This document shows positions 993 through 14,622 of a stretch of 18,267 nt of DNA, piece by piece. Both the position numbers and the translations under genes were made by a program. The notes below the pieces were generated by a model. It saw only the letters and a list, made by a program, of their open reading frames with translations, made no database searches and had not been told where the DNA came from. The stretch comes from Deltaproteobacteria bacterium. Lineage in GTDB: Bacteria; Myxococcota_A; UBA796; UBA9615. Every line of letters begins with the position of its first letter. The stretch's first letter is position 1. The DNA lies in NCBI GenBank assembly GCA_023954745.1, contig JAGSHC010000130.1, positions 1-18,267 of the forward strand, in the 5' to 3' direction.

Positions 993-2126
993 CTAGTCGG
1001 ACTCGAGAGTGCTGCCGTCGGTCGTCAGCCGGATGGTTCCGGGCCCGGCGGGAGGACTGAACGGGTCGGCCGTCTTCGTCAGGTCGTTGGCGTGGGGGAC
1101 CGGGGCATATTTGCCGGCTTCGTCGCTCATGGCGTTGAGAACGTCGGGTGAGCTCTTCTTGCCGTCCATGACGCCCACGCGCCCCAGCAGGCGGCTGTAC
1201 TGCACGAGATCGCCGCCTCTGGGCGTGATCCGGCGCAGACCGCGCAGCTTGTGCCCCGCCTCGCGCGCGGTCTGGATGCGCAGCGAGGGGTCTCGCACCA
1301 GCAACTCGCGGCACAGCGGAGCCATCTCCGGGAATCGCGCCTCCACCTGACTGATCTCGAGGTCGAGGCTCCGGCTCCGCACCGTCTCGGCCATGTCGAG
1401 CAGGTCGGCGGTGGGGTCCACGAAGCGCTTCTCGGTGCAGAACTCGAAGAGCACCACCCCGAGGGCCCAGAGGTCAGAGACCGGCGCATCCTCCCGGCGG
1501 CCATCGAGGGCCTCGGGCGACATGTAGGCCGGGGTGCCGCGCTGCACGCCCGTATGGGTCGTGCTCAGGTCACTCAGGAGCTTGGCCATGCCGAAGTCGG
1601 CCACCTTCACAGTGCCGTCGGTGCTCAGCATGACGTTGGACGGCTTGAGGTCCCGGTGCACGATGCGCAGCTGGTTTCCGTCCGGCCGCATGCCGCTCCA
1701 GGCGTGGTCCAGGGCGTCGCAGATTCCGATGCCGAGCTCCACGAGCGCCGACCGCGGAATGCTCATGCCGTTCCGCACCAGCCCCTTGCCGAGCTGCGAG
1801 AGGTTGAGCCCCTCGACGTACTCCATGACCAGGAACGGGACGTCGTTGCGCATCTCCACCGAGTGGATGGCGACGACGTTGACGTGGCGGAGCAGGCTGG
1901 CGACCCGAGCCTCCCGCACCAGCGCCTTGAAGCCGTGGCGGGACATGGGGTCGAGCAGGAACTTGAGGGCGACGGGGCGCTCGAACCCGAGGCCGCTCTT
2001 CTCGCTCGCCAGCCAGACCTGCCCAAAGGCGCCCTGCCCAAGCCTCCGCTTCAGCGTGAAACGCTCGAGCTTCAGCCCAGCGAAGAGCTGAGTCGGGGAA
2101 TGCCTGTTCTGGGCAGAAGACGTCAC
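993..2126 (-). CDS. Serine/threonine protein kinase (Hanks-type, apparently active)
   Basis: Gly-rich loop 'LGQGAFGQV', VAIK-type Lys in 'VALKFL', catalytic loop 'HRDLKPSNVML', 'DFG' in 'VADFGMAKL', and 'GTPAYMSPE' (APE). The kinase domain is at the N-terminus, followed by a ~90 aa low-complexity tail. The apparent start is GTG at 2126, with no in-frame ATG before the Gly loop. Confidence 0.85.
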   Translation of the reverse strand: MTSSAQNRHSPTQLFAGLKLERFTLKRRLGQGAFGQVWLASEKSGLGFERPVALKFLLDPMSRHGFKALVREARVASLLRHVNVVAIHSVEMRNDVPFLVMEYVEGLNLSQLGKGLVRNGMSIPRSALVELGIGICDALDHAWSGMRPDGNQLRIVHRDLKPSNVMLSTDGTVKVADFGMAKLLSDLSTTHTGVQRGTPAYMSPEALDGRREDAPVSDLWALGVVLFEFCTEKRFVDPTADLLDMAETVRSRSLDLEISQVEARFPEMAPLCRELLVRDPSLRIQTAREAGHKLRGLRRITPRGGDLVQYSRLLGRVGVMDGKKSSPDVLNAMSDEAGKYAPVPHANDLTKTADPFSPPAGPGTIRLTTDGSTLESD

Positions 2127-2226: not shown

Positions 2227-5200
2227 CTACTCCTGGGCGAGGTCGGTCACCGCCTCTGCGACATGTCGCCGCAGCTGATCCATGAGCGACGCCCACTCCT
2301 CCTGCGACAGCGAGACGGTGCCCAACAGCTGCCCGATCTTCACGAACAGGTCCTGGATGACCGGAAGCGATCCCGCGAGCACCGCGCTGCGTGGCGAGCG
2401 CATCGTCATGTCGTCCGGGTCGATCTCCCGAAGATTCCCCGCCAACGCGTTCTGAGCCTGCAGCAACACCTCCCGCTGCACTTCAGCGACGTCCTCGTTG
2501 CTGCGGATGGCGTCCGGGGACGCCGCGAGGAACTCGAGCACGTTGAGATCCGCCAGACCGCGGGCCGTGCCCTGCACTCCCTTGCGGATGCCCTGAAGCT
2601 CCGACGCCAGCTCCCCGACGATGACGTCGAGCTTCATCGCCAGGTCGCCCTGACCGGCGACCGTGGGGGCCTTCGCTGCGGCGGCAGCTGACGCCGACGC
2701 CGCCGCTTCGGTCGCCGCGACGAGCGCCTCCTGCATCTCGCTGCTCTTCACCGCCGCCTTCGCCGTGTGCCCGATGGCGTTTGCGCCGCGCTGCACCTGC
2801 TCGGTGAGGGTGCCGAGGCGGACCCCAATCTCCTCGAGGCTCTCCTCCAGATCCCCGGTGGAGCCCGCGACCAGCGTCTCGCGAATGGCTTCGAGCTGCC
2901 GGTCCAGCCCGCTGAGGGCCCCGGTGACCCGCGCCACCGGGTCGTCTTCCCCGCCACCGGTCAGCATCGATCGGCGGAACTCCTTGCGGATGTCCTCCCA
3001 CCGCGCCCGCTGCTCGTCCGTCAGCGTGCCGAGCATCTCCCACAGCTTGAGGAGGTTGGCCTCAGCCCCCGTGGTCAGAGTCTGGGCTTCACCGATGTAG
3101 TGGTCGCGCAGGAGTGCGTCGAGCTCCGCGTCGTTCATGGCCGGCACGATCTTCTCGGACAGCTTGTTCATGTTCCGGTAGCTGCCCTGAAGCTTGAACG
3201 GCGGCTCCGTGCGGAACGCGTCCTCTTGCGCGGCGCTGGAGATGTACTGCTGGTTCACCGCGAGGACCACCTCCTGCACGCGGGCGAGCTTGCGCAGCAC
3301 GCCGGTCACCTCGTTGAGCTCGACGGTGGAGTACTCGTGGGACAGGTCCGAGGTCGGCACCTCCTCCCCCCGAGCGAGGTTGACGAGCTTGTACACGTCG
3401 CTCTGCTCGCGGGTGGCCAGCGGCTGGAGCACGGGGTTTGAGGTGAGGCTGTTCTCCACATAGGAGAGGGCGAAGGCCTCCTCTCGACCGTCGAGGATGT
3501 CGCCGAGGTTGTAGGTGTCCGCGCGGTTGGCGAGCATGTCGGGGATCTGGAAGCGGTCCCCGGACTCCGTGTAGGGATTCCCCGCCATCACCACCGCGAA
3601 CTTCTTGCCCCGCAGGTCGTAGGTGCGGGTGCGCCCCTTCCACACGCCCTCGATGCGCCGGGTGCCATCGCACAGGCTGATGAACTTCTGGAGCAGCTCG
3701 GGGTGGGTGTGCTGGATGTCATCCAGGTAGAGCATCACGTTGTTCGCCATCTCGAAGGCGAGGTTGATCTTCTCCACCTCCTGCCGCGCCGTGGCGTTGG
3801 GGGCCTCGGCGGGGTCGAGGGACGTGACGTCGTGCCCGAGGGCAGGGCCGTTCACCTTCATGAAGACGAGGCCCAGCCGCGAGGCGATGTACTCCATCAG
3901 GGTGGTCTTGCCGTACCCGGGTGGGGACACGAGCAGGAGCAGCCCCATCTGGTCCGTGCGCCGCGAGTCGCCGGCGGAGCCCATCTGCTTGGCGAGGTTG
4001 TCGCCGACGATGGGCAGATACACGTCGTTGATGAGCTTGTTGCGCACGAAGGCCGACATCACACGGGGGGTGTACTCGTCGAGGCGCAGCCTCCGTCGTT
4101 CCCGCTCCAACACCGCGTGCCGGGTCGTCCGCCATGCCGCAAAGGCCGGCACCGTCTCGCCGATCCAGCCCGAGAGCCGTCCCAGGTACTCGTCGAGCCT
4201 CAGCTCCAGGACCCCGTCCCGAATGCGCCGATGCTGCGAGAGCAGACCCGTCGCCGTCACCGACGTCAGCGCCGCCGAGCCCTCGTGCTCGAGGATGCTC
4301 TCGGTGAGGAGCCGGGCCGCCGTCTCCAGCGCGAGCCCCTCCCCTTCTGCGCCGCTTCGCGTCTGCGCGTCCTCGGCCGTGCGACCAAACACCGCGGCCG
4401 TCCAGGCGCGCACCAGCGCGAGGCGCTCCTCGAAGAGCCCGTCCAGAGCCGCGAGGTCATCCTCGAGGATGCGCCGTCCGCCGTGGTCCTCCAGGTGCCG
4501 CACGAGCGCGTCGTGCAACGTCTGGGCTTCGGACGACACACAGAAGCGGGGATGCTCGGCTTGCAGCTCTTCGACGAGATAGCTGCCCGCCATCGCCGCC
4601 TCTGACGCCGCCAGCGTCAACGAGGGCGCAGCCTCCGCCAACATCGTCCCGAGGGCGCCGGCCAGCTCGTGGGCGAGATCCGCGAGGCCGCCCGTGGCGC
4701 CCAGGGTCTCTCGCAAGCGTCCAAAGCTGCGCGCGCGGCGGTGCCAGCGCTCCTTCGCGTCCGAGTCGCTGGACCAGGCCCAGAACAGCATCGCCGCAGC
4801 CCGCGGCCGGGGCGGGAAGCGCAACAGACCCGCGGTCCCCCGCAGATGAAGCAGCTCCCTCAGCAGGGTGGCCGCGTCCGCGTCGTGCACTCCGCGCTCG
4901 TATCCTTCGTCGTAGCGCTCGGCGGCGTACTCCCGCACGAGCGTCATCAGCTCCTGCTCCTCGAGCACGGCGTCTTCGAGGTCGGACACGGTGAGGCCGC
5001 TCTGACCCGCCTCTGCGGCGAAGAGGATGGACGCCGCCAGGAACTCCGCGCGACTGACGTCTGCTCCCTCGCTGGGCAGCGCCTGCTCCCAGAACGGCTG
5101 AGCCGCGGCCACCTTGGGATCCTCGATGACCTCGTAGAAGTCGGTGCCCGTCAGGTGCAACGCCATGGCGCCATCCCGCGGCACCATCGTGAGCTCGAGG

Positions 5201-7857
5201 GGGCGCGTGTTCACCGGGAACCGGTGCTTGCCGAACTTGATGAGGTTGGCGCCGTCCCCGTCGAAGAGCTCGAGGCGGTCACGCAGCCCGCGTAGGGCGT
5301 CCTGCCGCGCGGCCTGCAGGCGGGCCAGCAGCTCCTCGCCCTTCACGGCGTCGCCCAGAGAGGTCAGCTTGTCCCCGAGGTCCCGCAGCTTGAGCACCAT
5401 GGAGTCGCTGGCGAACCAGGCGTTCAGCTCGTCCTGGTCCTTGAACGTGCGCGCCCTGCGGGCCACGCCGCTGAGGATGCGCTCCGCCGCCTTCACCAGG
5501 CTGCCGATCCGCTTCTGCCGCTCGTCCACCAGCACCTGCTTGCGCGCGCCGAGGGCGAGCTCGATCTCCTCTCGCTTGCTCGCGAGCTGAGGCAGGAACT
5601 CGTCGAACTCGCCAAACCTCGCCTCGAGCTCCTCGAGCTGGAGCATCAGGCGGGAGAGCTGGTCGTCGCAGGCCTCGGGAGAGTCCGCGAGCGCCACCGC
5701 CGACGACACGGACTGGCCCAGAAGGCTCCACTGCGCTGCGAAGTCCGCCCGCGCCTCGTGCCCCGCGATCTCCTTGCGCTTGTTGGTGAGCACCGCGCGC
5801 ACCCGGTTCACCTGGCCGAACACCTCGCCGAGCCGCTCGAGGATGGCGGCGCGCGCGGTGGCGTCGTCGATCTCCAGACCGGAGACCACCTCGGTCATGA
5901 GCTCGAGGCCCGAAATGAGCTCCCCCTGCTTCTCGACGAGGGGCTTCATGTCCACGAGGCGCTCGACGGCTTCGATCTGGCCGTGCAGCTCCTCGATGCG
6001 CTTCGTGAGGGGAGTCAGGGCGTCGTCGCCGAGGAGAAACTCCACGGTGGCGCGAGAGATGCGCTCGAACTCGCCGGCGACCTCCTCTTCCATCCCGTCG
6101 ATGGCGGCGCGGTCGATGTACCGCACGTCCCGCATCGTGATGAGGTGCCCGCGCTGGGTCCTCAGGCCCGTGAGGGCCGCCATGAACTGCTCCGCCTCCA
6201 CCCAGGAGTCGGGGTGCAGGTCGTCCTTGAGGGTGCGCTGCTGCTCGCGCGCCTCGGTGAGGGCCGATTGCGCCTCGCGCTGGAGGATCTGCACCTTCTC
6301 GAACTCGTCGATGATGAGCTCGGCGACGTCGCGCACCTTCGCCAGGGGCGAGGCGAGGGCGATCTCGTCTTCGGAGAACCAGAAGTACGTGTCCAGCGCG
6401 CGCTGGCAGGCCGTCACCAGGGCCTCGTAGACCCCGCGACTCGGCTCCTGCTCCACCACCATGCGGCCCACGGTGAGGCAGTCCGACAGTCCGCGGACCA
6501 GCTCCTTGTTGCCGATGCGGGCCAACGCGCTGCCGTCGGTGGGGACCTGCGCGGCGTGCTCGGCGGAGACGAAGGGCGTGTCCCACACCTGCATGGGGTG
6601 GACGCGTGAGGGCTCGTCGGACGCGGCCCGGAACACCACCAGGCGGCCGTCGTCGAAGAGCGACCAGCCGTGGCAGCGAATGGGATTGCGCACCTCGCGC
6701 CGGATGAGGTTGTAGGGGAAGAGCACGTAGAGCCCGTCCCGGCGGCGGTTGAAGACGAACAGCACGTCCTCGCCGTTGGGCGACGCCACCTTGCGCAGGA
6801 AGCGCAGGTCCTCGTCGACGTCCGGGAAGACCTTGTACTCCCCCGTCTGGAGCACGTAGCCGCCGGGGAAGATGACGCCGTGGTCTTCGGGCAGCGCCAC
6901 GCAGCTGTCGCCGACGCTGTCGATGCGCAGGACGTGCTGGGTGCGGCGGTTGAAGACGAGGTGGCGGTAGCGGTCCTCCATGTAGGGGCGGATGCGCAGC
7001 AGCACCAGCGAGCCACGAATCGTGTAGAGGATGTGGGCGTCGTCGAGCGACTGGTTGGGGTCGTCCACGTCCTCGCGGTACACGCCGAGGCCGTCTTCGG
7101 TGTTGTCCTCGACCTTGATGGTGAGGTCCCCGCCGACCGTCTCCACGAACACGACGTCCTCCACGCTCACGTGGGGATGGCGCCCCAGGATGTGGTCGTC
7201 GCGCGAGGTCTCAGTCCACTCGAAGTCGTGGGTCGGCGGAGGCACGAAGGCCCGCTCGCCGCGGTCGTCGATGTACTCGATGTGCTCCGACGCATCGAGG
7301 CCCCACTGGAAGACCTTGACCGAGTCCTCGGACTCGCCGGTCTGGAAGACGGCCAGCAGCTTGCGGCCGTCGCTCCGAAGCGCCACCAGGCGCGTGTCGG
7401 AGTAGTACTGGTAGAGCTGGGTGAAGGCGCGCTGGAACTCCGCCCCGTGCAGGAAGGCCGCCTCCTCCGGGGACGCCGGGGTGAACTCCAGGAGCCCGTC
7501 CTCGCGTACCGAGAAGTGCTGGACGGAGAACACGTCGTCGATGGTGGTCGTCTTGCGGAGCCCGACGAACACGTTGTACCCGAAGAGCAAGAGCCCGCCG
7601 ACCTGCACGATGTCCACGGGAACGCAGTTGTTCTCCGTGCGCACGCGCTCGGTGCCGAGCACTCCAGCCTCAGTGCCTCCGAAGAGGGCCTGACGCTGCT
7701 CGTTGAGTGCCCGGGCGGCGTCCGCGAGCCCCCGCCCCTGGCCCGAGAGCCGCTGGCGGATGACTTCGTAGCTGCCTCCCGGTCCACCCTCAGCGGGAGA
7801 GCCCCCGGCGCTCTCTGTCCCGCCGGGGGTCTCCGTGGTGGCCGAAGCCTCAGGCAT
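2227..7857 (-). CDS. Giant (1876 aa) AAA_5/MoxR-like P-loop ATPase-containing protein; disordered N-terminus, probable beta-rich N-terminal region, long alpha-helical/coiled-coil regions, ATPase module near residues ~1310-1470
   Basis: Walker A 'VSPPGYGKTTLMEY' lies at ~3901-3940 on the minus strand. Walker B 'VMLYLDDIQH' lies at ~3711-3740. A sensor-like segment 'KFAVVMAGNPYTESGDRFQIPDMLANRA' is typical of AAA_5 (MoxR/McrB/dynein-related) ATPases. The ORF is one continuous 5.6-kb reading frame with high codon-3 GC. Its ATG at 7857 overlaps the flotillin stop as ATGCCTGA. Confidence 0.8.
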   Translation of the reverse strand: MPEASATTETPGGTESAGGSPAEGGPGGSYEVIRQRLSGQGRGLADAARALNEQRQALFGGTEAGVLGTERVRTENNCVPVDIVQVGGLLLFGYNVFVGLRKTTTIDDVFSVQHFSVREDGLLEFTPASPEEAAFLHGAEFQRAFTQLYQYYSDTRLVALRSDGRKLLAVFQTGESEDSVKVFQWGLDASEHIEYIDDRGERAFVPPPTHDFEWTETSRDDHILGRHPHVSVEDVVFVETVGGDLTIKVEDNTEDGLGVYREDVDDPNQSLDDAHILYTIRGSLVLLRIRPYMEDRYRHLVFNRRTQHVLRIDSVGDSCVALPEDHGVIFPGGYVLQTGEYKVFPDVDEDLRFLRKVASPNGEDVLFVFNRRRDGLYVLFPYNLIRREVRNPIRCHGWSLFDDGRLVVFRAASDEPSRVHPMQVWDTPFVSAEHAAQVPTDGSALARIGNKELVRGLSDCLTVGRMVVEQEPSRGVYEALVTACQRALDTYFWFSEDEIALASPLAKVRDVAELIIDEFEKVQILQREAQSALTEAREQQRTLKDDLHPDSWVEAEQFMAALTGLRTQRGHLITMRDVRYIDRAAIDGMEEEVAGEFERISRATVEFLLGDDALTPLTKRIEELHGQIEAVERLVDMKPLVEKQGELISGLELMTEVVSGLEIDDATARAAILERLGEVFGQVNRVRAVLTNKRKEIAGHEARADFAAQWSLLGQSVSSAVALADSPEACDDQLSRLMLQLEELEARFGEFDEFLPQLASKREEIELALGARKQVLVDERQKRIGSLVKAAERILSGVARRARTFKDQDELNAWFASDSMVLKLRDLGDKLTSLGDAVKGEELLARLQAARQDALRGLRDRLELFDGDGANLIKFGKHRFPVNTRPLELTMVPRDGAMALHLTGTDFYEVIEDPKVAAAQPFWEQALPSEGADVSRAEFLAASILFAAEAGQSGLTVSDLEDAVLEEQELMTLVREYAAERYDEGYERGVHDADAATLLRELLHLRGTAGLLRFPPRPRAAAMLFWAWSSDSDAKERWHRRARSFGRLRETLGATGGLADLAHELAGALGTMLAEAAPSLTLAASEAAMAGSYLVEELQAEHPRFCVSSEAQTLHDALVRHLEDHGGRRILEDDLAALDGLFEERLALVRAWTAAVFGRTAEDAQTRSGAEGEGLALETAARLLTESILEHEGSAALTSVTATGLLSQHRRIRDGVLELRLDEYLGRLSGWIGETVPAFAAWRTTRHAVLERERRRLRLDEYTPRVMSAFVRNKLINDVYLPIVGDNLAKQMGSAGDSRRTDQMGLLLLVSPPGYGKTTLMEYIASRLGLVFMKVNGPALGHDVTSLDPAEAPNATARQEVEKINLAFEMANNVMLYLDDIQHTHPELLQKFISLCDGTRRIEGVWKGRTRTYDLRGKKFAVVMAGNPYTESGDRFQIPDMLANRADTYNLGDILDGREEAFALSYVENSLTSNPVLQPLATREQSDVYKLVNLARGEEVPTSDLSHEYSTVELNEVTGVLRKLARVQEVVLAVNQQYISSAAQEDAFRTEPPFKLQGSYRNMNKLSEKIVPAMNDAELDALLRDHYIGEAQTLTTGAEANLLKLWEMLGTLTDEQRARWEDIRKEFRRSMLTGGGEDDPVARVTGALSGLDRQLEAIRETLVAGSTGDLEESLEEIGVRLGTLTEQVQRGANAIGHTAKAAVKSSEMQEALVAATEAAASASAAAAAKAPTVAGQGDLAMKLDVIVGELASELQGIRKGVQGTARGLADLNVLEFLAASPDAIRSNEDVAEVQREVLLQAQNALAGNLREIDPDDMTMRSPRSAVLAGSLPVIQDLFVKIGQLLGTVSLSQEEWASLMDQLRRHVAEAVTDLAQE

Positions 7858-9778
7858 CGCTGTTCGTCTCGTTCGAGCCGGTCGCCTTGTCGATCACCTT
7901 GCCGGCAATGGCCTTGAGGCCGCCGGGGACGTCGAAGTCGCCGTCGAGCATGTCGCCGAACATGTTCTGGAGCACCTCGGACTCGCCGGCCACGGCGTCG
8001 ATGCTCTGCCCGAGGCTCACCGCCTTGATGAACCGCTCGAAGAACTCTCCGTCGCCGCCCACGATCTTGATGTCCGCGGACTCCATCGCCGTGCCGAGCA
8101 CTGCGGCCTGGGCCTCGGCGATCTCCTTGCGCACGTCAAGCGCCTGCTGCTGGAGCTGCTTCATCGTGTCCAGCTTCAGGCGGAACTCCTCGTGCTGCCA
8201 ACCCTGACCCTCGAGGGCCTTCATGGCCTCGGCCTTCTCGTGGATGCCGGCTGCCTCGGCAGCGGCCTTTTCCTTGGCGACCAGGGCCTGGGACAGACCG
8301 AGCTTCTCTTCGCCTTCCGCCTGCGCCGACATCTTCTCGATGGTGACGCGGGCCTCGGCGAGGCCTTCCTTCTCCAGGGCGATGGCGTTGGCCTCCTTGA
8401 CCCGCGCGATGGCGAGACCGGAAGCGGCTTCCTGCGCCTGGGTACCCTCGGCCAGGCGAATCTTCGCCTTCGCCTCGATGTCCGCAGCCTTGAGCTCGGC
8501 CTCGGCGAGCACGACGCGCTCCTTGGCCTGGAACTCCGCCGCCCTCTCCTGGGCCTCGGCAGCCTTGATGCTCATGATGAGCGACTCCTGGGCCGACGCC
8601 TCGGCGTCGATGACCTTCACGTCCGCGTGGCGCTTCGCCTCGGAGTTCACCCGCAGGTCCTTGATGCGCTCCTCCTCCTCGGCCACCGACTTGTCGACGG
8701 CGATGCGGGTGCGGACGACCTCGGCGATCTCCTTCTTCTCCTTCTCGATCGCCTTCTCCTTGTTGATCCGCCCGAGCTCGACCTCGCGCTCGCGGTTGAT
8801 CTCTTCGAGCTGGCGGTCCTTCTCGACCTGCTCGCTCTTGATGGCGACCACGCGCTCGCGGTCCTTGTCGGCCACCTGCACCTGCCGGGTCTTGTTCAGC
8901 TCGGCGACCTCGATGGACTCGTCCGCCTTGATGCGGGCGGCCTCGGCGCGGTTGCGCTCCTCGGAGCGGACCTTCTCGGTCTCGGCGGCTTCGCGAGCGG
9001 CCACCGTGGCGACCTCGCGGTTCTTCTTGGCGAGGGCGTCGGCGTGGCGGCGCTCCTGCTCGAAGACCTTCTCGTCCGCGTCCACCTTGAGGCGGGTGAG
9101 CTCCATGCGCTCCGACTGGCGCCGCTCCTCCGTCTTGATGTTCTGGTCCGTGGTGATCTCCGTGATCTTGCGGATGCCCTGGGCGTCGAGGATGTTCGAC
9201 GGGTCCAGGGAGCTCAGGGGCGTCTGCTCGAGGTAATCGATGGCCGCGTCGTCGAGCACGTACCCGTTCAGGTCGGTGCCGATGACTTCGATGATGCGGT
9301 CCTTGAACTCGTTCCGCATGGTGAAGAGCTGCTCGAACTCGAGCGACTTACCGACGGTCTTGAGCGCCTCGGAGAACTTCGCGACGAAGAGCTCCTCGAG
9401 CACGTCCTGACGGCTCGCACGGTCGCAGCCGAGGGCCTGGGCCACCTTGAGCACGTCGTCCTCGGTCTTGTTGACCCGGACGAAGAAGGTGACCTTGATG
9501 TCGGCGCGGATGTTGTCCTGGCAGATGAGCCCTTCAGCTCCGCGCCGGTCGAGCTCGACCGTCTTGACCGAGATGTCCATGACCTCAGCGCGGTAGATGA
9601 TGGGGAGGACGATGCCGCCCGTGAAGGAGACGACCGGCTCACCCTGCACCTTGTTGATGATGAGGGCTCGACCCTGGTCGACCTTGCGGTAGAAGCGCGT
9701 CACCAGGACCAGGAAGCCCACCACGATCAGCGCGAGGACCAGGATGGCGCCGGCGACGGCGAGTGCGGATTGGGTCAT
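7850..9778 (-). CDS. Flotillin-like SPFH/band-7 protein (YqiK/FloT family)
   Basis: N-terminal TM helix 'LAVAGAILVLALIVVGFLVLV'. SPFH core 'FYRKVDQGRALIINKVQGEPVVSFTGGIVLPIIYRAEVMDISVKTVEL...ICQDNIRADIKVTFFVRV' matches flotillin/YqiK conservation. It is followed by a >300 aa Glu/Ala-rich coiled coil and a C-terminal flotillin-type tail. ATG at 9778 has AAGGGG ~12 nt upstream. Confidence 0.9.
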   Translation of the reverse strand: MTQSALAVAGAILVLALIVVGFLVLVTRFYRKVDQGRALIINKVQGEPVVSFTGGIVLPIIYRAEVMDISVKTVELDRRGAEGLICQDNIRADIKVTFFVRVNKTEDDVLKVAQALGCDRASRQDVLEELFVAKFSEALKTVGKSLEFEQLFTMRNEFKDRIIEVIGTDLNGYVLDDAAIDYLEQTPLSSLDPSNILDAQGIRKITEITTDQNIKTEERRQSERMELTRLKVDADEKVFEQERRHADALAKKNREVATVAAREAAETEKVRSEERNRAEAARIKADESIEVAELNKTRQVQVADKDRERVVAIKSEQVEKDRQLEEINREREVELGRINKEKAIEKEKKEIAEVVRTRIAVDKSVAEEEERIKDLRVNSEAKRHADVKVIDAEASAQESLIMSIKAAEAQERAAEFQAKERVVLAEAELKAADIEAKAKIRLAEGTQAQEAASGLAIARVKEANAIALEKEGLAEARVTIEKMSAQAEGEEKLGLSQALVAKEKAAAEAAGIHEKAEAMKALEGQGWQHEEFRLKLDTMKQLQQQALDVRKEIAEAQAAVLGTAMESADIKIVGGDGEFFERFIKAVSLGQSIDAVAGESEVLQNMFGDMLDGDFDVPGGLKAIAGKVIDKATGSNETNSDA

Positions 9779-9811
9779 TTTCTTCTGTACCCCTTGTTTC
9801 GTTGTGTGTGT

Positions 9812-9833
9812 CGGGCTTCTACGCGGAAGCCCG
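9812..9833 (-). other. Perfect 8-bp stem / 6-nt loop hairpin (CGGGCTTC-tacgcg-GAAGCCCG) in the 68-bp spacer between the YqiJ-like gene and the flotillin gene; adjacent (GT)4-5 microrepeat at 9803-9811
   Basis: Read directly: 9812-9819 is the exact reverse complement of 9826-9833. On the transcribed (minus) strand it is not followed by a U-tract, so it is more likely an intercistronic processing or stability element, or an attenuator, than an intrinsic terminator. Confidence 0.4.
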
Positions 9834-9846
9834 GGTTTCTATTGCC

Positions 9847-10764
9847 TTAGTTGCTCTGCTTTCGGCGCGCTGCGACGCGGGCCCTCACCCGGTCGATGGC
9901 CGCGAGGCGTGCTGCCTGCACGTCCCCCTCGGCTGCCTTGACGTCGAGCTTCTCGACGACAAACGCCTCCCCTTCCCGGTCCCACTGCACAAGCAGCGCC
10001 CGGTCCCCCTTGCTCAGCCCCTGCTCGGAGCGGTCGCGCACCTGCACGATGTTGTGATGGCCCGCCTCGGTGACCTCCGCCTGGCCGAAGGTCTTGGTGA
10101 CCTTGCCGGTGGTGATGGTCACGACGACGCCGATGAACGAGCGGTTGCCCCGTCCTCGTTCCGTGTGGAACAGCCCTCCCAGGGGGCGCACCGCGACCGA
10201 GGCTCCAAGAGTGCCCGCCGTGAAGGCGCTCAGCGCGATGGCGGCGCCGCTCAGAAGCTCCGGCACCGGCAGCAAGGGCGCCACGTGCACCGTCATCAGG
10301 AAGCTGGCGAGCCAGGAGAACAGGACGATGAACGACAAGCTCACCGTCAGGGGGACCGTGGTGAGCTTGAGGGTCGAGAGCATCACTGCGAGCAGACCCG
10401 GGCCGTGCCCGTCTACGTCCGCATCGGCGTCGAGGCCGTCCAACGCTGCATCTCCGGCCCCCTCGAACGCGCCGTCGATGCCGTCCAGCGCCCCGTCGAG
10501 GGCATCCAGCCCGGGGAATCCGTTCCCGTCGAGGGCGTCCAAACCGTCCAGACCGTCTAGACCGTCTAGCGCTCCGTCCAGGGCGCCATCCGCCGCGCCG
10601 TCGAGGCCTCCCTCGAGCGCTCCATCGGCGCCGTCGAGGGCGTCGAGGGCGTCCAGGTCCACCGCGCCGATCACGACGAAGACCCAATAGATCAGGGACA
10701 ACAGCAGGGGCACGGTGAAGATCACCGTCGGCAGGCTCAGAACCGTCGAGACAAAGTCGCCCAT
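9847..10764 (-). CDS. YqiJ/NfeD-like inner-membrane protein with C-terminal OB-fold (flotillin partner), carrying an ~85-aa (A/G)LDG acidic tandem repeat insert
   Basis: N-terminal TM 'LPTVIFTVPLLLSLIYWVFVVIGAV', central TM cluster 'LLAVMLSTLKLTTVPLTVSLSFIVLFSWLASFLMTV...AAIALSAFTAGTLGASV'. C-terminal NfeD-type OB fold 'GVVVTITTGKVTKTFGQAEVTEAGHHNIVQVRDRSEQGLSKGDRALLVQWDREGEAFVV'. ATG at 10764 has GAGGGAG 5 nt upstream. The gene sits immediately upstream of flotillin, as in yqiJ-yqiK / nfeD-flo operons. Confidence 0.75.
   Translation of the reverse strand: MGDFVSTVLSLPTVIFTVPLLLSLIYWVFVVIGAVDLDALDALDGADGALEGGLDGAADGALDGALDGLDGLDGLDALDGNGFPGLDALDGALDGIDGAFEGAGDAALDGLDADADVDGHGPGLLAVMLSTLKLTTVPLTVSLSFIVLFSWLASFLMTVHVAPLLPVPELLSGAAIALSAFTAGTLGASVAVRPLGGLFHTERGRGNRSFIGVVVTITTGKVTKTFGQAEVTEAGHHNIVQVRDRSEQGLSKGDRALLVQWDREGEAFVVEKLDVKAAEGDVQAARLAAIDRVRARVAARRKQSN
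10405..10665 (-). repeat. Imperfect in-frame tandem repeat (9-18 nt units, e.g. gccgtcgagggcgtccag / gaccgtctag) encoding ~25 copies of (A/G)-L-D-G within the YqiJ-like protein
   Basis: The protein segment is 'DLDALDALDGADGALEGGLDGAADGALDGALDGLDGLDGLDALDGNGFPGLDALDGALDGIDGAFEGAGDAALDGLDADADVDG'. The DNA shows the iterated units directly, e.g. 10541-10570 'ccgtccagaccgtctagaccgtctagcgct'. Confidence 0.8.
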
Positions 10765-10986
10765 CCCACTCCCTCGGGCGCGTCGCTTGCGCGGCGCCGC
10801 CCGCTCCTCCGGGGACCGGAGTATCGCCCATCAGCACCGTGCTTGGTAGCTCGCAGGCCCTCGTTCTTACGGGCGGCCGACCAGTTCATTGCTACTGACC
10901 GAACGGTCGAGTTAGGCGTTTTTATCGATCTAGTTCTGGACGTTTTGGTCTCTTTGGGCAATAACTTCCCTCGGAGGCAGAACGAA
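10765..10986. promoter_or_regulatory. Divergent intergenic region between the flotillin operon (-) and the SDR/PYP operon (+); contains an AT-richer stretch (~10910-10970) and the RBS GGAGG (10972-10976) for the ATG at 10987
   Basis: Codon-3 GC collapses in all frames. 'gcgtttttatcgatctagttctggacgttttggtctctttgggcaataactt' is the lowest-GC segment in the window. Both flanking genes start outward from this region. Confidence 0.5.
10897..10908. promoter_or_regulatory. 12-bp inverted repeat GACCG-AA-CGGTC in the divergent promoter region (candidate operator)
   Basis: Read directly: half-sites GACCG and CGGTC are exact reverse complements separated by AA. The site lies ~80 bp upstream of the SDR gene ATG. 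Confidence 0.25.
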
Positions 10987-12459
10987 ATGCGTGTGTTGGT
11001 CACAGGAGCTACTGGATTCGTCGGACGGGCTTTGGCCCTTCGTCTTCTCCGTGGCGGCCACGAGATCGTCGCCTGGACCCGCAACGAAGAGCGTGCGCGG
11101 GACCTCTTGGGACCTTCGGTCCTCCTGGCGAGCGACGCCTCCCCGGGACGCCTCGAAGAGGAGGTTGCCCTCGCCGATGCGGTGGTGAACCTCGCCGGAG
11201 AGAACCTCTTCTCCGGTCGCTGGACCGAAGCCACAAAGCAACGACTGGTGAACTCCCGGGTCGACCTGACCCGGCGGATCTCCACGGCCCTGGCCGCGTC
11301 CCCCCCGCGAGACCGGGTGCTGATCAGCTCGAGCGCGGTGGGTTTCTACGGAGCCCGAGGCGACAGCGAGCTCGACGAGACGTCTGCCCGCGGGGATGGC
11401 TTCCTCGCCGACCTCTGCGTCGCCTGGGAGCAGGCGGCCACCGCGGCTCGCACCGACTCCACCCGTGTCGCAATCCTCCGCACCGGCCTGGTCCTCGGCT
11501 CCGAAGGTGGAGCCCTCGCGCGCATGCTTCCGTTGTTCAGGGCCGGCCTCGGCGGTCGCCTCGGGCACGGTCGTCAGTGGATGTCCTGGATTCACCTGCA
11601 CGACCTCGTCGGTCTCATCATGCGGGCGCTCGATGACACCTCCTTCGAGGGGGTCTTCAACGCGACGGCTCCCGAGCCGGCGACCAACCGGGAGTTCACC
11701 CGCGCCCTCGCCGATGCTTTGGGCCGACCGGCGCTCCTTCCTGCGCCGGGCGTCGCGATGCGACTGGCTCTGGGCGAGGCGGCGGGGGTCCTCTTGACCG
11801 GGCAGCGCGTTCTGCCGCGACGGGGTGCGGCGGCGGGCGTGCGCTTCGCGTACCCGACCCTCTCCGACGCCTTTGCGCAGGTCCTCGATCAAGGCCGAAC
11901 CCCCACCATTCGGCGCGCCGACCGCGGCACGAAGCCCCTCGCGAACCGCCCAGCCGCGCAGTTCGTGCTCGAGCAGGAGACCCGGATCCAGGCCCCCCTG
12001 GTCGAGGTGTTCCCGTTCTTCAGCCGCGCCGCGAACCTCGCGCTGCTGACCCCCACCTGGACGGACTTCCGCATCCTCGAGCACCCCCAGGGCGAGACCC
12101 TGCAGGGCTCGAACATCGTCTACCGCCTCACCCTGTTCGGGGTGCCGATTCGGTGGAAGACCCTCATCGCGCAGTGGGAGCCCGGAGAGCGCTTCGTCGA
12201 CACCCAGCTCCGAGGGCCGTACCGCCTCTGGTGGCACGAGCATCACTTCGCCTCCACGCCCGACGGCGGTGTCCACATGGTGGACCGGGTGTCCTACACG
12301 GTCCCCCTCGGCCCTCTGGGGCGCGTGGCGAACTCCATCCTCGTCGCACCTCTGCTGAAGCGGATCTTCGCCTGGCGAGCCGAGGCAATCACTCTTCGCT
12401 TCAACCCCGACGCCCCCCGCCATGGTCGCTCGGACACCCAGAACCGGAGCGCCGCATGA
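10987..12459 (+). CDS. TIGR01777/YfcH-family NAD-binding epimerase (SDR-like, DUF1731-type) fused to a C-terminal SRPBCC (polyketide-cyclase/START-like) ligand-binding domain
   Basis: The Rossmann motif 'MRVLVTGATGFVGRALA' sits at the extreme N-terminus. 'LRTGLVLGSEGGALARMLPLFRAGLGGRLGHGRQWMSWIHLHDLVGLI' is typical of YfcH-like proteins. The C-terminal ~150 aa 'FVLEQETRIQAPLVEVFPFFSRAANLALLTPTW...RFVDTQLRGPYRLWWHEHHF' is SRPBCC-like. The in-frame upstream TTG at 10843 is rejected because codon-3 GC there is low and the Rossmann loop would not be N-terminal. Confidence 0.8.
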   Translation: MRVLVTGATGFVGRALALRLLRGGHEIVAWTRNEERARDLLGPSVLLASDASPGRLEEEVALADAVVNLAGENLFSGRWTEATKQRLVNSRVDLTRRISTALAASPPRDRVLISSSAVGFYGARGDSELDETSARGDGFLADLCVAWEQAATAARTDSTRVAILRTGLVLGSEGGALARMLPLFRAGLGGRLGHGRQWMSWIHLHDLVGLIMRALDDTSFEGVFNATAPEPATNREFTRALADALGRPALLPAPGVAMRLALGEAAGVLLTGQRVLPRRGAAAGVRFAYPTLSDAFAQVLDQGRTPTIRRADRGTKPLANRPAAQFVLEQETRIQAPLVEVFPFFSRAANLALLTPTWTDFRILEHPQGETLQGSNIVYRLTLFGVPIRWKTLIAQWEPGERFVDTQLRGPYRLWWHEHHFASTPDGGVHMVDRVSYTVPLGPLGRVANSILVAPLLKRIFAWRAEAITLRFNPDAPRHGRSDTQNRSAA

Positions 12460-13415
12460 CCCGTCCAGTCATCGCAGTGAGCGGCTGCATCGCCGGCGAG
12501 TCCGTGCGCTTCGACGGCGGCTTCGGCAAGGACGCGTTCCTGCTGAACCAGGTGGCCCCCTTCGCAGACCTCGTCACGTTCTGTCCCGAGGTGGAGGCAG
12601 GCATGGGGACTCCACGCAACACCATCCGCCTCGTGCGTGCAAGCAGGTCCGAAGAGACTCGAGTCATCCAGAACAAGACCGGTGACGACTGGACCGAGCG
12701 TCTGCGCGCCACGTCGAGAGAGATCGCCGCACGCCTCGCGGCCGCCAACCTCTCCGGAGTCGTGGTCCGTCGAAACTCCCCCACGTGCGGCCTGGAGCGA
12801 GTGCGGATCTACGACTGGAACGCAGTGCCCAGCAAGGAAGGCGTGGGCGTCTTCGTCCAGGCCCTGCGGGAGCGCTTCCCACTGCTGGCCATCGAGGAAG
12901 ACGGACGCCTTCGAGACGCTCGCATTCGCGAGGCGTTCTTCGAGCGGGTCTTCGCCCACGCCCGCCTGCGGGAGCTGCTCGACGCGGGCACCTGGCGCGC
13001 CAGAGACGTCGTCGCCTTTCACAGCCGCGAGAAGCTGCTCCTCCTCTCCCACAGCCCGAAGGTCTACCGGGAGATGGGCCGCCTCGTCGCCCGGGTGGGC
13101 TCCATGGAGCGCGCCCCATTCGCGGCGGCCTACGCCGAGCTCTTCTTGTCCGCCATGGCTGAGCCCGCGACCCCGGGCCGCCAGGTGAACACGCTCCAGC
13201 ACGCGGCGGGGTTCCTCAAGCGGGACAGCCTCCCGGCTGAGAAGGCGCGCCTCGCCAACATCATCTCCGATTACGCCGCGGGCTTGTTGCCCCTTGCTGT
13301 GCCCGTGGCCGTACTGCGCGCCGGGATTGCTCGTACCCAGCCCTCTTGGCTGAGCGCCCAATCCTGGCTCGCCCCCCACCCCAAGCAACTGAGACTGAGG
13401 ACATGGGTTCCATGA
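12456..13415 (+). CDS. DUF523 (TudS-like Fe-S thiouracil desulfidase fold) - DUF1722 (YbgA-like) fusion protein
   Basis: ATG 12456-12458 overlaps the upstream TGA 12457-12459 (ATGA). The N-terminus 'MTRPVIAVSGCIAGESVRFDGG' and 'VVRRNSPTCGLERVRIYD' match the DUF523 conserved Cys motifs. The C-terminal half, rich in 'FFERVFAHARLRELL...LLLLSHSPKVYREMGRLVA', is YbgA/DUF1722-like. Confidence 0.8.
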   Translation: MTRPVIAVSGCIAGESVRFDGGFGKDAFLLNQVAPFADLVTFCPEVEAGMGTPRNTIRLVRASRSEETRVIQNKTGDDWTERLRATSREIAARLAAANLSGVVVRRNSPTCGLERVRIYDWNAVPSKEGVGVFVQALRERFPLLAIEEDGRLRDARIREAFFERVFAHARLRELLDAGTWRARDVVAFHSREKLLLLSHSPKVYREMGRLVARVGSMERAPFAAAYAELFLSAMAEPATPGRQVNTLQHAAGFLKRDSLPAEKARLANIISDYAAGLLPLAVPVAVLRAGIARTQPSWLSAQSWLAPHPKQLRLRTWVP

Positions 13416-14044
13416 CTGAAAACTCCTTGATGACCACCCGCTCTGTCGCCGACCTCCTCGGCGTTGGCGTGAGCTCCGTGAAGCGCTGGACCGACGAGGG
13501 AAAGCTCACCTGTGTGCGGACCGCTGGAGGACATCGTCGCTTCGAGACGGTGGAAGTAGACCGCTTCCGGCGCGAGCAGTTTGCCCAGGACCGCGAGCGC
13601 AAGCCCTACCCGGCGGCGATGCTCGACATTGATGGCTATCGGCTGCCGGCCCCACTGCACGAGCTGACCGCCGCCGAGATCGACGCGCTGCCCTTCGGCG
13701 TGATCCAGCTGGACGATGACGGCATGGTCATCTTCTACAACAAGGCCGAGAGCAAGCTGTCGGGGCGGAGCGTCGAGGACTCGGTGGGACGTTCGTTCTT
13801 CACCGAGGTGGCGCCCTGCACCAACAACAGTCTGCTGCGTGGACGGTTCGAGGACGGCATCGCCATGAAGAACCTCGACTGCACCATCGACTACACGTTC
13901 ACCTATCGCATGCGTCCGACCCCCGTGCGCATGAGGCTGCGACGCGATGGTCCGTCCAAGACCAACTGGCTCATCGTGACTCCGCGAAAGGTCGGGGACC
14001 GAAAGAGCCCCGCAGGATCGCCCGGTCGGTTCGGACGGTCTTGA
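13412..14044 (+). CDS. HTH_17 (excisionase/MerR-type DNA-binding) - photoactive yellow protein (PYP) domain fusion, paralogue 1
   Basis: ATG 13412-13414 overlaps the upstream TGA 13413-13415 (ATGA), with GAGG 11 nt upstream. The HTH is '[34 protein letters not shown]'. The PYP core '[27 protein letters not shown]...[11 protein letters not shown]...DYTFTYRM' aligns with Halorhodospira PYP, with Tyr42, Glu46, Arg52, chromophore Cys69 ('VAPCT'), Phe96 and Tyr98 conserved. Alternative in-frame starts exist at 13403 and 13430. Confidence 0.8.
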
Positions 14045-14622
14045 CCCGCGCGGGGCGGACACCAACACTGCCTCTCGTGAACGACGACCTCATCACCACC
14101 CGCGCCGCGGCAGCCCTCTTGGGCGTCGGTACGACATCCATCAAACGGTGGGCTGACGACGGCACTCTTGTCTGTGTCCGCACTGCCGGGGGCCATCGGA
14201 GGTTCCGTCGGGGGGAGGTGCTTCGGCTCCTCAACTCCTCGGAGGAGGGACCGGGCTCCGAGAGCAAGGCCGACATCCACGAGCGCCTCCCCTCCATGAC
14301 GACGGGGCAGCTCGACACCCTCGACTTCGGAGTCGTCCAATTGGGCGACGATGGCCTGGTCCTGCAGTACAACGCCTTCGAGGAAGAGTTCGCTCACCTC
14401 CGACGTCAAGATGTGGCCGGCCTGAACTTCTTCACTCACGTGGCCCCCTGCACGAACAACAAGCTCCTCTACGGCCGATTCCGAGAAGGAGTCGCACGCG
14501 GGCTCTTCGACTTCACCATGGACTACACCTTCACCTACAAGATGCAGCCCCGGGTGGTGTCGCTCCACGTGTTCCGCCACTCGGGGACGAACACCAACTG
14601 GCTGCTCGTGAGGCCGCGCTAG
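14041..14622 (+). CDS. HTH_17 - photoactive yellow protein (PYP) domain fusion, paralogue 2
   Basis: The HTH '[33 protein letters not shown]' is ~65% identical to paralogue 1. The PYP core '[22 protein letters not shown]...[11 protein letters not shown]...DYTFTYKM' has Tyr42, Glu46 and Cys69 conserved, but Thr50 and Arg52 are replaced (A, L). The start is uncertain: TTG at 14041 overlaps the upstream stop (TTGA), and GTG at 14074 would give an N-terminus colinear with paralogue 1. Confidence 0.7.

Follow-up and report, generated by a model that had tools for sequence, protein, structure and literature searches.

We analyzed the 18,267-nucleotide contig JAGSHC010000130.1 of a Deltaproteobacteria bacterium (assembly GCA_023954745.1), referred to below, at its full length, as the window, and focused on the giant ATPase gene that it carries on the minus strand. 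The gene starts with ATG, runs for 1876 codons, and is the last of a three-gene cassette transcribed in one direction: a gene for a YqiJ-like membrane protein, a flotillin gene, and the ATPase gene (Table 1). The ATPase start codon overlaps the stop codon of the flotillin gene by eight nucleotides (ATGCCTGA), and the two genes are translationally coupled. Below we describe how widely this arrangement is conserved, the family and the architecture of the ATPase, and the role in remodeling a flotillin scaffold that these data suggest for it.

The ATPase gene is locked to a flotillin gene

We surveyed 80 loci fetched from species genomes; 75 of them were informative, in that 2.5 kb or more lay upstream on the contig. 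A flotillin gene lay adjacent, on the same strand and directly upstream of the ATPase gene, in 74 of the 75, across four phyla. The sole exception (locus L013) has a gap of ~6.4 kb between the two genes (~3500-10000), which may be an insertion. The YqiJ-like gene preceded the flotillin gene in at least 72 of the 80 loci, with most of the remainder cut by contig ends. Furthermore, the identities of the ATPases and of the flotillins to their window copies were correlated (r = 0.65). Downstream of the ATPase, no conserved gene was found, the largest cluster (rhomboid) accounting for 6 of 71 loci. In 13 gammaproteobacterial loci, DUF2170 and PspA genes were added upstream. The window itself gave no match to either, and the gene upstream of its YqiJ-like gene is a divergently oriented epimerase; it thus represents the abbreviated three-gene form of the operon.

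Rhomboid and PLD(HKD) genes each occurred in 8 of the 80 loci, all gammaproteobacterial. The rhomboid-family proteases are those of L031, L038, L053, L056, L059, L063, L071, and L072 (~15.2-16.5 kb). In seven of these eight loci the rhomboid gene directly follows the ATPase, and in L053 it lies upstream on the opposite strand (5119-5595); a PLD(HKD) gene follows the rhomboid gene in five of the eight. The sections of the operon literature that we consulted make no mention of a link between rhomboid proteases and the cassette. The gene triad is also carried by pQBR103, a megaplasmid of Pseudomonas fluorescens SBW25 (L083; NC_009444.1, 86464-103419), where it directly follows DUF2491, DUF350, DUF1190, and glutathionylspermidine-synthase genes (yjfKLMC-like) and is itself followed by an MvaT/MvaU-family gene.

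The identity of the 642-residue partner as a flotillin is indirect. The protein had no Pfam match even at E ≤ 10, including Band_7 (PF01145), and no PDB match, whether searched as a single sequence or as a 20-sequence profile. Band_7 was, however, matched by 8 of 20 aligned orthologues (57-86% identity; best E 7e-13), and orthologues are named YqiK, SPFH, or flotillin in their source databases. Its probable membership in the SPFH/flotillin proteins therefore rests on transitive homology. The C-terminal region of this flotillin holds a conserved motif, IVGGDGxFFERFIKA. The Glu/Lys/Ala-rich coiled-coil region of the flotillin gene produces the strongest AT-skew excursion of the window (-0.35 at ~8000-9500). 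The 305-residue product of the first gene, named "glycine zipper family protein" by NCBI, is similar to its YqiJ-like counterpart in Pseudomonas loci (E 8e-15); among its homologues, one carries PF21001 and one has an NfeD-type name.

The ATPase belongs to a large catalogued family

Pfam assigned DUF3686 to residues 44-492 of the ATPase with 644.6 bits (cut-off 25; E 8.8e-194), covering positions 2-448 of the 448-position profile, and DUF7902 with 88 bits (cut-off 26). The AAA, AAA_5, and AAA_22 models matched residues ~1303-1430, each just above threshold. Indeed, the AAA_5 assignment proposed in an earlier reading of this DNA, made from the sequence only, stands at 28.6 bits against a gathering threshold of 22 and spans profile positions 2-125 of 139; the generic AAA model scored comparably (30.6 bits), yet covered only positions 1-73 of 131. 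The window protein thus shows the order DUF3686, DUF7902, and C-terminal AAA in a chain of ~1550-2040 residues, and the lengths and precomputed Pfam strings of its homologues agree with this layout. It aligned end to end and collinearly, at 52-81% identity, with the more than 100 homologues listed.

The family comprises at least 5,595 clusters at 90% identity. A search of 1.84 billion representatives with the N-terminal domain recovered 668 clusters (50% identity), in which the domain was N-terminal in all cases and complete chains measured 1550-2036 residues. A collection holding one genome per species yielded at least 567 relatives, and members are known from Myxococcota, Actinomycetota, Gammaproteobacteria, and Planctomycetota. 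On plasmids the gene occurred in 13 of 72,556 records, mainly megaplasmids such as pQBR103. We conclude that the window gene encodes a full-length, typical member of a large, catalogued DUF3686-DUF7902-AAA+ family.

NCBI names the exact protein "MAG: DNA repair ATPase [Deltaproteobacteria bacterium]", and Pfam describes DUF3686 as "ATPase involved in DNA repair". NCBIfam returned only P-loop-level matches to RuvB, RFC, and BrxF, far under their cut-offs. Similarly, when the PDB was searched by sequence, neither the protein alone nor a profile of 29 sequences gave more than Walker-A-length matches to p97, NVL, RuvB, and Rpt3, together with coiled-coil noise from the tail; as judged by sequence, no relative has a solved structure. 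Literature searches for "DUF3686" (full text) and for flotillin together with "DNA repair ATPase" gave no hits. ATPases of the MoxR class are widespread among bacteria. The sequence-only reading had considered the protein unusual in bacteria, a view contradicted by its own Pfam models (DUF3686 and DUF7902), by the cluster and species counts above, and by a published operon (PMC11237479). It had also regarded placement in a well-characterized family, with an established function unrelated to flotillin, as the outcome that would overturn it. The protein instead falls in a defined family whose function is not established and whose link to flotillin is nearly universal. The family had been catalogued and its flotillin context noted by others, and no member has been characterized experimentally.

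A single MoxR/midasin-type AAA+ unit with an atypical Walker B motif

We built two AlphaFold2 models on an 80-sequence alignment, one of residues 1-1200 (mean predicted local distance difference test score, pLDDT, 85) and one of residues 1100-1876 (mean 77, with the ATPase core above 90). The core is the best-conserved part of the protein, with a column conservation of 0.92, against 0.74 for the lid and extension, 0.72 for the propeller, and 0.34 for the C-tail. Among 66 diverse family representatives, 63 carry the Walker A motif SPPGYGKTT and two more SPPGYGKTS. The motifs SPPGYGKTT, YLDDIQH, GNPYTE, LxNRAD, and QGSYR are all present in the window protein and recur in 58-65 of the 66, and the residues K1317, D1379-D1380, N1427, R1445, and R1561 are invariant in 29 aligned members. 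The closest structural neighbors of the module are midasin, NorQ, CbbQ, and dynein, the match to this clade including the position of the lid; MoxR-class remodelers are nearer in fold than Clp/FtsH unfoldases, by a small margin only. By profile match and model, residues ~1299-1633 form a single MoxR/midasin-type unit of the Pfam AAA_5 clade.

The Walker B motif sets the family apart. MoxR-class proteins (NorQ, CbbQ, RavA) and the units of midasin and dynein (AAA_5/AAA_3, pre-sensor-II-insert clade) usually have DE at this position, whereas every family member examined has DD, within a family-wide pattern (L/I/V)DDIQH. The motif (3712-3732) is closer to the DDIQ of DnaA, a switch-type replication initiator, than to the MoxR-class DE, and suggests slow or regulated hydrolysis.

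A further feature of the core is RRIEGVWKGRTRTYDLRGKK, an Arg/Lys/Trp/Tyr-rich and nearly invariant hairpin whose modeled strands (residues 1402-1406 and 1409-1413) lie between alpha3 and beta4; in the model, it occupies the position of a pre-sensor-1 beta-hairpin. The beta2-alpha2 stretch is modeled as only an 18-residue loop with short helical turns, lacking a helix-2 beta-hairpin insert.

The sequence-only reading had placed one compact ATPase module about two-thirds along the chain, with no second P-loop and no MIDAS or nuclease motif. Both Walker motifs were recovered where it had seen them, ~70% along the chain. A regular-expression scan gave no second P-loop, and Pfam, NCBIfam, and PADLOC gave no vWA/MIDAS or nuclease domain in the protein. 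The likeness it drew to dynein and midasin holds for the fold of one AAA unit and breaks down beyond it, as the six tandem units and the DE Walker B are wanting. Dynein and midasin have six AAA units per chain, whereas the window protein has one P-loop and one AAA match. MoxR proteins measure ~300-500 residues, in contrast to one AAA unit in 1876 residues with its own propeller and rod, and MoxR systems and midasin carry a vWA/MIDAS domain, in a partner or fused, which the window ATPase lacks.

A predicted propeller and helical rod precede the ATPase

Outside the core, the models resolve a series of domains (Table 1). Over the modeled chain, 58% of residues are helical, 14% are in strands, and 28% are in other states (DSSP). 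"Largely helical", as the protein had been described, is accurate in this respect and understates both a beta domain of ~370 residues and a second one, small, with modeled strands at residues 872-910. The earlier suggestion of beta-strand-like periodicity near the N-terminus proved correct, with 26 DSSP strands over residues 65-426 (pLDDT ~90), a region that holds both VLFVFNRRRDGLYVLFPYNLIRREV (residues 365-389), quoted in that suggestion, and GRLVVFRAASD (residues 404-414). The 26 modeled strands are consistent with about seven four-stranded blades, and the Foldseek matches of this N-domain are WD40 and propeller proteins: DCAF1, prolyl oligopeptidase, Ski8, EED, DDB1, clathrin, and nucleoporins.

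The expected disorder of the first ~30 residues was likewise observed: the first 28-30 are rich in Gly (27%) and in Pro, Glu, Ala, Ser, and Thr (13% each), are modeled at pLDDT 31-34, and show no conservation; family-wide conservation sets in with the helix that follows (GGSYEVIRxRL). Toward the ATPase, the middle region is predicted to contain a small three-stranded sheet and a long helix that run into the core. The ~400-residue Ala/Glu/Leu-rich helical C-terminus that had been proposed is smaller than thought: residues 1634-1876 fit the description, whereas residues 1453-1633 belong to the conserved lid and extension. Profile matches of the C-tail are to designed coiled coils.

Table 1. The ATPase gene, its domains and motifs, and its cassette partners. 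Positions are those of the window; residue numbers (aa) are those of the ATPase unless a length is given.
Feature	Position	Strand	Basis
Whole ATPase gene, 1876 aa, DUF3686-DUF7902-AAA+ family	2227..7857	-	Open reading frame call, Pfam, homologue search
Disordered Gly/Ser/Thr/Pro/Glu N-tail, non-conserved, aa 1-28	7774..7857	-	Composition, AlphaFold2, conservation
Conserved N-terminal helix, aa 29-59	7681..7773	-	Alignment, AlphaFold2
Divergent beta-propeller-like domain, aa 60-430, DUF3686 core	6568..7680	-	Pfam, AlphaFold2, Foldseek, strand count
Predicted helical rod of long helices, spectrin-repeat-like, aa 444-864 (~420 aa)	5266..6528	-	Model
DUF7902 inside the helical rod, aa 612-696	5770-6024	-	Pfam
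Small conserved beta domain, aa 872-935 (KFGKHRFxVNT...LHLTGTDFYE)	5053..5244	-	Alignment, AlphaFold2, conservation
Helical middle region, aa 936-1298, with invariant RYDEGYERGxHDxDAA	3964..5052	-	Alignment, AlphaFold2
AAA+ alpha/beta core, aa 1299-1452	3502..3963	-	Pfam, model, conservation
Walker A SPPGYGKTT, aa 1311-1319, K1317	3901..3927	-	Motif scan, alignment
Walker B LYLDDIQ, aa 1376-1382	3712..3732	-	Motif scan, alignment
Basic/aromatic hairpin, aa 1400-1419	3601..3660	-	Model strands, invariant columns
Sensor-1 VVMAGNPYTE (N1427) and putative Arg finger LANRAD (R1445)	3517..3594	-	Alignment, motif scan
Helical lid and extension, aa 1453-1633, with invariant QGSYRNM	2959..3501	-	Alignment, model
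QGSYRNM motif, R1561 as putative sensor 2 (GSxR type)	3166-3189	-	Alignment
Variable Ala/Leu/Glu-rich helical C-tail, aa 1634-1876	2230..2958	-	Low pLDDT, low conservation
Upstream partner, YqiK-type SPFH/flotillin (probable), 642 aa, transmembrane segment	7850..9778	-	Orthologue names and Band_7
Leading gene of the cassette, membrane protein of 305 aa resembling YqiJ/YuaF (short NfeD)	9847..10764	-	Similarity to YqiJ-like genes

Published operons and a probable family member in Pseudomonas aeruginosa

The cassette corresponds to an operon in Ravi et al. 2024 (Ravi, Anantharaman, Aravind, Gennaro et al., mSystems, PMC11237479), whose passages on it list genes for CesT/Tir, PspA, YqiJ/YuaF, and Band-7/flotillin proteins, sometimes with PLD, and report that abbreviated operons without PspA are more widespread. 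The supplementary table of that paper includes a "Betapropeller+Coiled-coil+AAA-ATPase" gene, which has the same domain order (propeller, coiled coil/rod, AAA+) as the window ATPase and, going by the operon entries, stands in the same gene order (YqiJ-like, flotillin, ATPase). The full operon, as far as those passages define it, is reproduced by our 13 gammaproteobacterial loci, with DUF2170, PspA, and in some cases PLD. Unlike it, the window contains no PspA, CesT/Tir-like, or PLD gene and equals an "abbreviated operon" in the published sense. Since the surveyed loci reproduce the published operon, the window can be taken to carry its abbreviated form. In those same passages, the gene receives a one-line computational description that covers neither its clade and motifs nor its structure and reports no experiment.

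The family can also be connected to the "biofilm-associated cluster" bacABCDEF of P. aeruginosa, which its authors describe, in the parts of the report concerning the operon, as co-transcribed and co-regulated (Wallart et al. 2024, PMC10948618). As given in the relevant parts of two papers (PMC10948618, PMC13086221), the products are BacA (DUF2170), BacB (PspA), BacC (short NfeD), BacD (the SPFH protein PaFlo3), BacE (PA14_16190/PA3728), and BacF. The same six-gene order is found in our locus L057: DUF2170, PspA, YqiJ-like, flotillin, ATPase, and PLD. The published primers for the bacD-bacE junction fit as well: one translates to EGDFFN and matches the 3' ends of flotillin genes in Pseudomonas loci, exactly in L071, and the other translates to PKNNCI, corresponding at "NNC" to the ATPase motif RTENNCIA at about residue 75. 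Because the gene order equals that of L057 and the primers fit, BacE is very probably the P. aeruginosa member of the DUF3686 ATPase family, an assignment drawn from synteny and primer sequence.

For this operon, the available text reports a 6- to 13-fold increase of all genes from BacB to BacF in a bacA mutant and proposes a sigma-54 site upstream of bacA (PMC10948618). The bac operon is sigma-54-dependent and includes PspA, whereas the window has neither a PspA gene nor a sigma-54 promoter motif beyond chance. Around the cassette, sigma-70 and terminator patterns were not informative.

A proposed role in remodeling flotillin scaffolds

Bacterial flotillins are widely studied as organizers of membrane microdomains, and, to our knowledge, current models treat flotillin cages as ATP-independent. 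A large AAA+ ATPase whose gene is so firmly tied to a single flotillin subfamily, in four phyla, is a natural candidate for the activity that assembles, opens, or recycles such cages; in Gammaproteobacteria, the link additionally extends to the gene for PspA, an ESCRT-III-like protein. As the ATPase gene almost always lies just downstream of the flotillin gene, its product probably powers the remodeling of that scaffold. The mechanism we infer, and toward which we lean slightly, is an AAA+ ring that remodels the flotillin/NfeD scaffold, and PspA where it is co-encoded, in an ATP-driven manner. The AAA+ modules would assemble into a ring, probably a hexamer by analogy with other MoxR-class ATPases. 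In place of the usual vWA adaptor, the propeller and rod would serve in cis, as arms built into the chain that attach to the flotillin/NfeD cage; the conserved flotillin C-terminal motif is a candidate docking site. ATP binding and hydrolysis would drive assembly, opening, or disassembly of the membrane scaffold, and PspA polymers may be remodeled likewise. The role of the system would then lie in envelope maintenance or stress handling rather than in DNA repair.

This proposal has precedents. SPFH proteins form cages able to house AAA+ machines, for example FtsH-HflK/C, and in B. subtilis an SPFH protein recruits PspA, according to the portions of the literature we drew on. Vps4 with ESCRT-III and FtsH with HflK/C, in which an AAA+ ring is coupled genetically or physically to PspA/ESCRT-III polymers or to an SPFH cage, serve here as functional analogies only. 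We also put forward, tentatively, a stronger version that is possible though doubtful: DUF3686 ATPases may be the dedicated energy source of flotillin microdomains, forming a hexameric MoxR-type ring whose six spectrin-like arms, each ending in a propeller, hold on to the roof of the flotillin/NfeD cage; the ring would open, recycle, or disassemble the cage and, where they are co-encoded, PspA/ESCRT-III polymers. If true, the family would correspond in function to Vps4, with bacterial SPFH/ESCRT-III membrane scaffolds as its target, and would provide the first example from any organism of a regulator that acts on flotillin assemblies at the expense of ATP. The probable tie to bacABCDEF places it in an experimentally tractable operon.

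Several points weigh against scaffold remodeling. Ring assembly, flotillin docking, and the remodeling activity itself are all steps that we infer. MoxR-class ATPases normally pair with a vWA/MIDAS protein, and no vWA match was found in the ATPase or in its window neighbors. The invariant DD leaves Walker B without the catalytic Glu, and the protein may work as a slow, nucleotide-dependent switch instead of a motor. The basic pre-sensor-1 hairpin, together with the PLD(HKD) gene of some loci, would also fit a nucleic-acid substrate. Finally, deletion of paFlo3, the cognate flotillin, reduced biofilm by only ~20%, with no other phenotype in the part of the report that describes the mutant (PMC13086221).

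Two alternatives keep the ATPase at the membrane. It could be a quality-control unfoldase or extractase, with the flotillin/NfeD cage as platform and client membrane proteins as substrates, resembling FtsH-HflK/C without a fused protease and served by a rhomboid in some lineages. Published accounts describe the AAA+ protease FtsH as enclosed by SPFH cages, and unfolded proteins as stabilized by S. aureus FloA-NfeD; the rhomboid gene of eight gammaproteobacterial loci also speaks for this role, as does the conserved aromatic/basic hairpin, whose W1406 and Y1413 could line a translocation pore. The canonical aromatic-hydrophobic pore loop between beta2 and alpha2 is not present, however, the nearest folds are MoxR-class remodelers and not Clp/FtsH unfoldases (if by a small margin), rhomboid genes are confined to 8 of the 80 loci and do not occur in the window, and Walker B is DD, so that we consider an unfoldase unlikely. 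That same invariant DD, with DDIQ as in DnaA, would suit a nucleotide-switched structural scaffold, in which propeller and rod form a lattice like a coat or membrane skeleton on flotillin domains and the AAA+ module acts as a slow assembly switch, as in DnaA/ORC. In Foldseek, the order of a propeller followed by long helices weakly matches nucleoporins and the heavy chain of clathrin, which, like the spectrin-like rod, is in line with such a lattice. Yet the very low TM-scores (~0.1) that coat proteins give reduce the resemblance to one of domain order. Moreover, the invariance of the Arg finger, of sensor 1, and of the sensor-2-like motif points to real hydrolysis, and the ATPase core is the best-conserved part of the protein. 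A mainly structural scaffold is accordingly improbable.

The other two alternatives lead away from envelope maintenance. A membrane-associated anti-phage or abortive-infection system, whose MoxR/McrB-like ATPase senses infection and acts through membrane perturbation or a PLD-type nuclease, would fit the patchy distribution of paFlo3, which resembles horizontal transfer in the published section on it (PMC13086221), as well as the copies on megaplasmids such as pQBR103, the PLD(HKD) gene downstream in eight loci, and the match of the adjacent window kinase to the PADLOC PD-T4-6 and mad6 kinase models. These kinase models are generic, however, and the kinase is not conserved beside the ATPase, even in a 78%-identical relative. 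In PADLOC-DB 2.0 the ATPase had only P-loop-length matches to IetA and mad8 (E 7e-4 to 1e-2, ~28 residues), and the flotillin and YqiJ-like proteins had none. The window neighbors are metabolic or regulatory genes rather than defense genes, the recurrent partner PspA is a membrane-repair protein, and only 13 of the 72,556 plasmid records carry the gene; we give a defense role little weight. DNA repair, the function in the NCBI and Pfam names, appears very improbable. Besides the name, it could draw on the weak P-loop-level similarity to RuvB and on the basic beta-hairpin, which sits at a position that contacts DNA in some AAA+ helicases. The RuvB match is confined to ~45 residues around Walker A, though, and reaches 21.7 bits where the cut-off is 282, and Pfam and NCBIfam detect no DNA-binding, nuclease, or helicase domain. 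No repair gene was found among the genes scanned at the window, its closest relative, two gammaproteobacterial loci, and pQBR103, nor, with annotated neighbors counted in, at the window and five related loci; the invariant partners are membrane proteins; and full-text literature searches gave no paper tying the family to repair. Hundreds of genome annotations thus bear a name, "DNA repair ATPase", that is without support and misleading.

Other genes of the window

A Ser/Thr kinase gene (993-2126, minus strand; Pkinase E 2e-39) lies 100 nucleotides downstream of the ATPase. We rejected it as a component of the system, as it is not found at that position in the 80 loci. In the 78%-identical relative its place is taken by an unrelated protein of 1502 residues. 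The two closest relatives with long contigs, L081 and L082, encode after the ATPase, on the same strand, a protein of ~1500 residues with no Pfam match (13982-18490 and 13982-18352, respectively, both on the plus strand).

The remaining genes considered here lie on the plus strand. The epimerase/DUF1731 gene (10843-12459) and the 2-thiouracil desulfurase/DUF1722 gene (12153-13415) overlap by ~300 nucleotides as listed; the copies in a relative are called at 484 and 333 residues, which makes it probable that the genes begin further downstream than listed. The Pfam domains of the epimerase stop at about residue 346 of 538, leaving a C-terminal extension without assignment. Similarly, the 638-residue product of 14795-16711 matches DUF455 only at residues 38-254, and its C-terminal ~380 residues have no Pfam match. 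Two tandem paralogous regulators with a MerR-type helix-turn-helix and a PAS domain (13346-14044 and 14041-14622) overlap by four nucleotides; the same pair, with the same neighbors, also occurs in the close relative L081.

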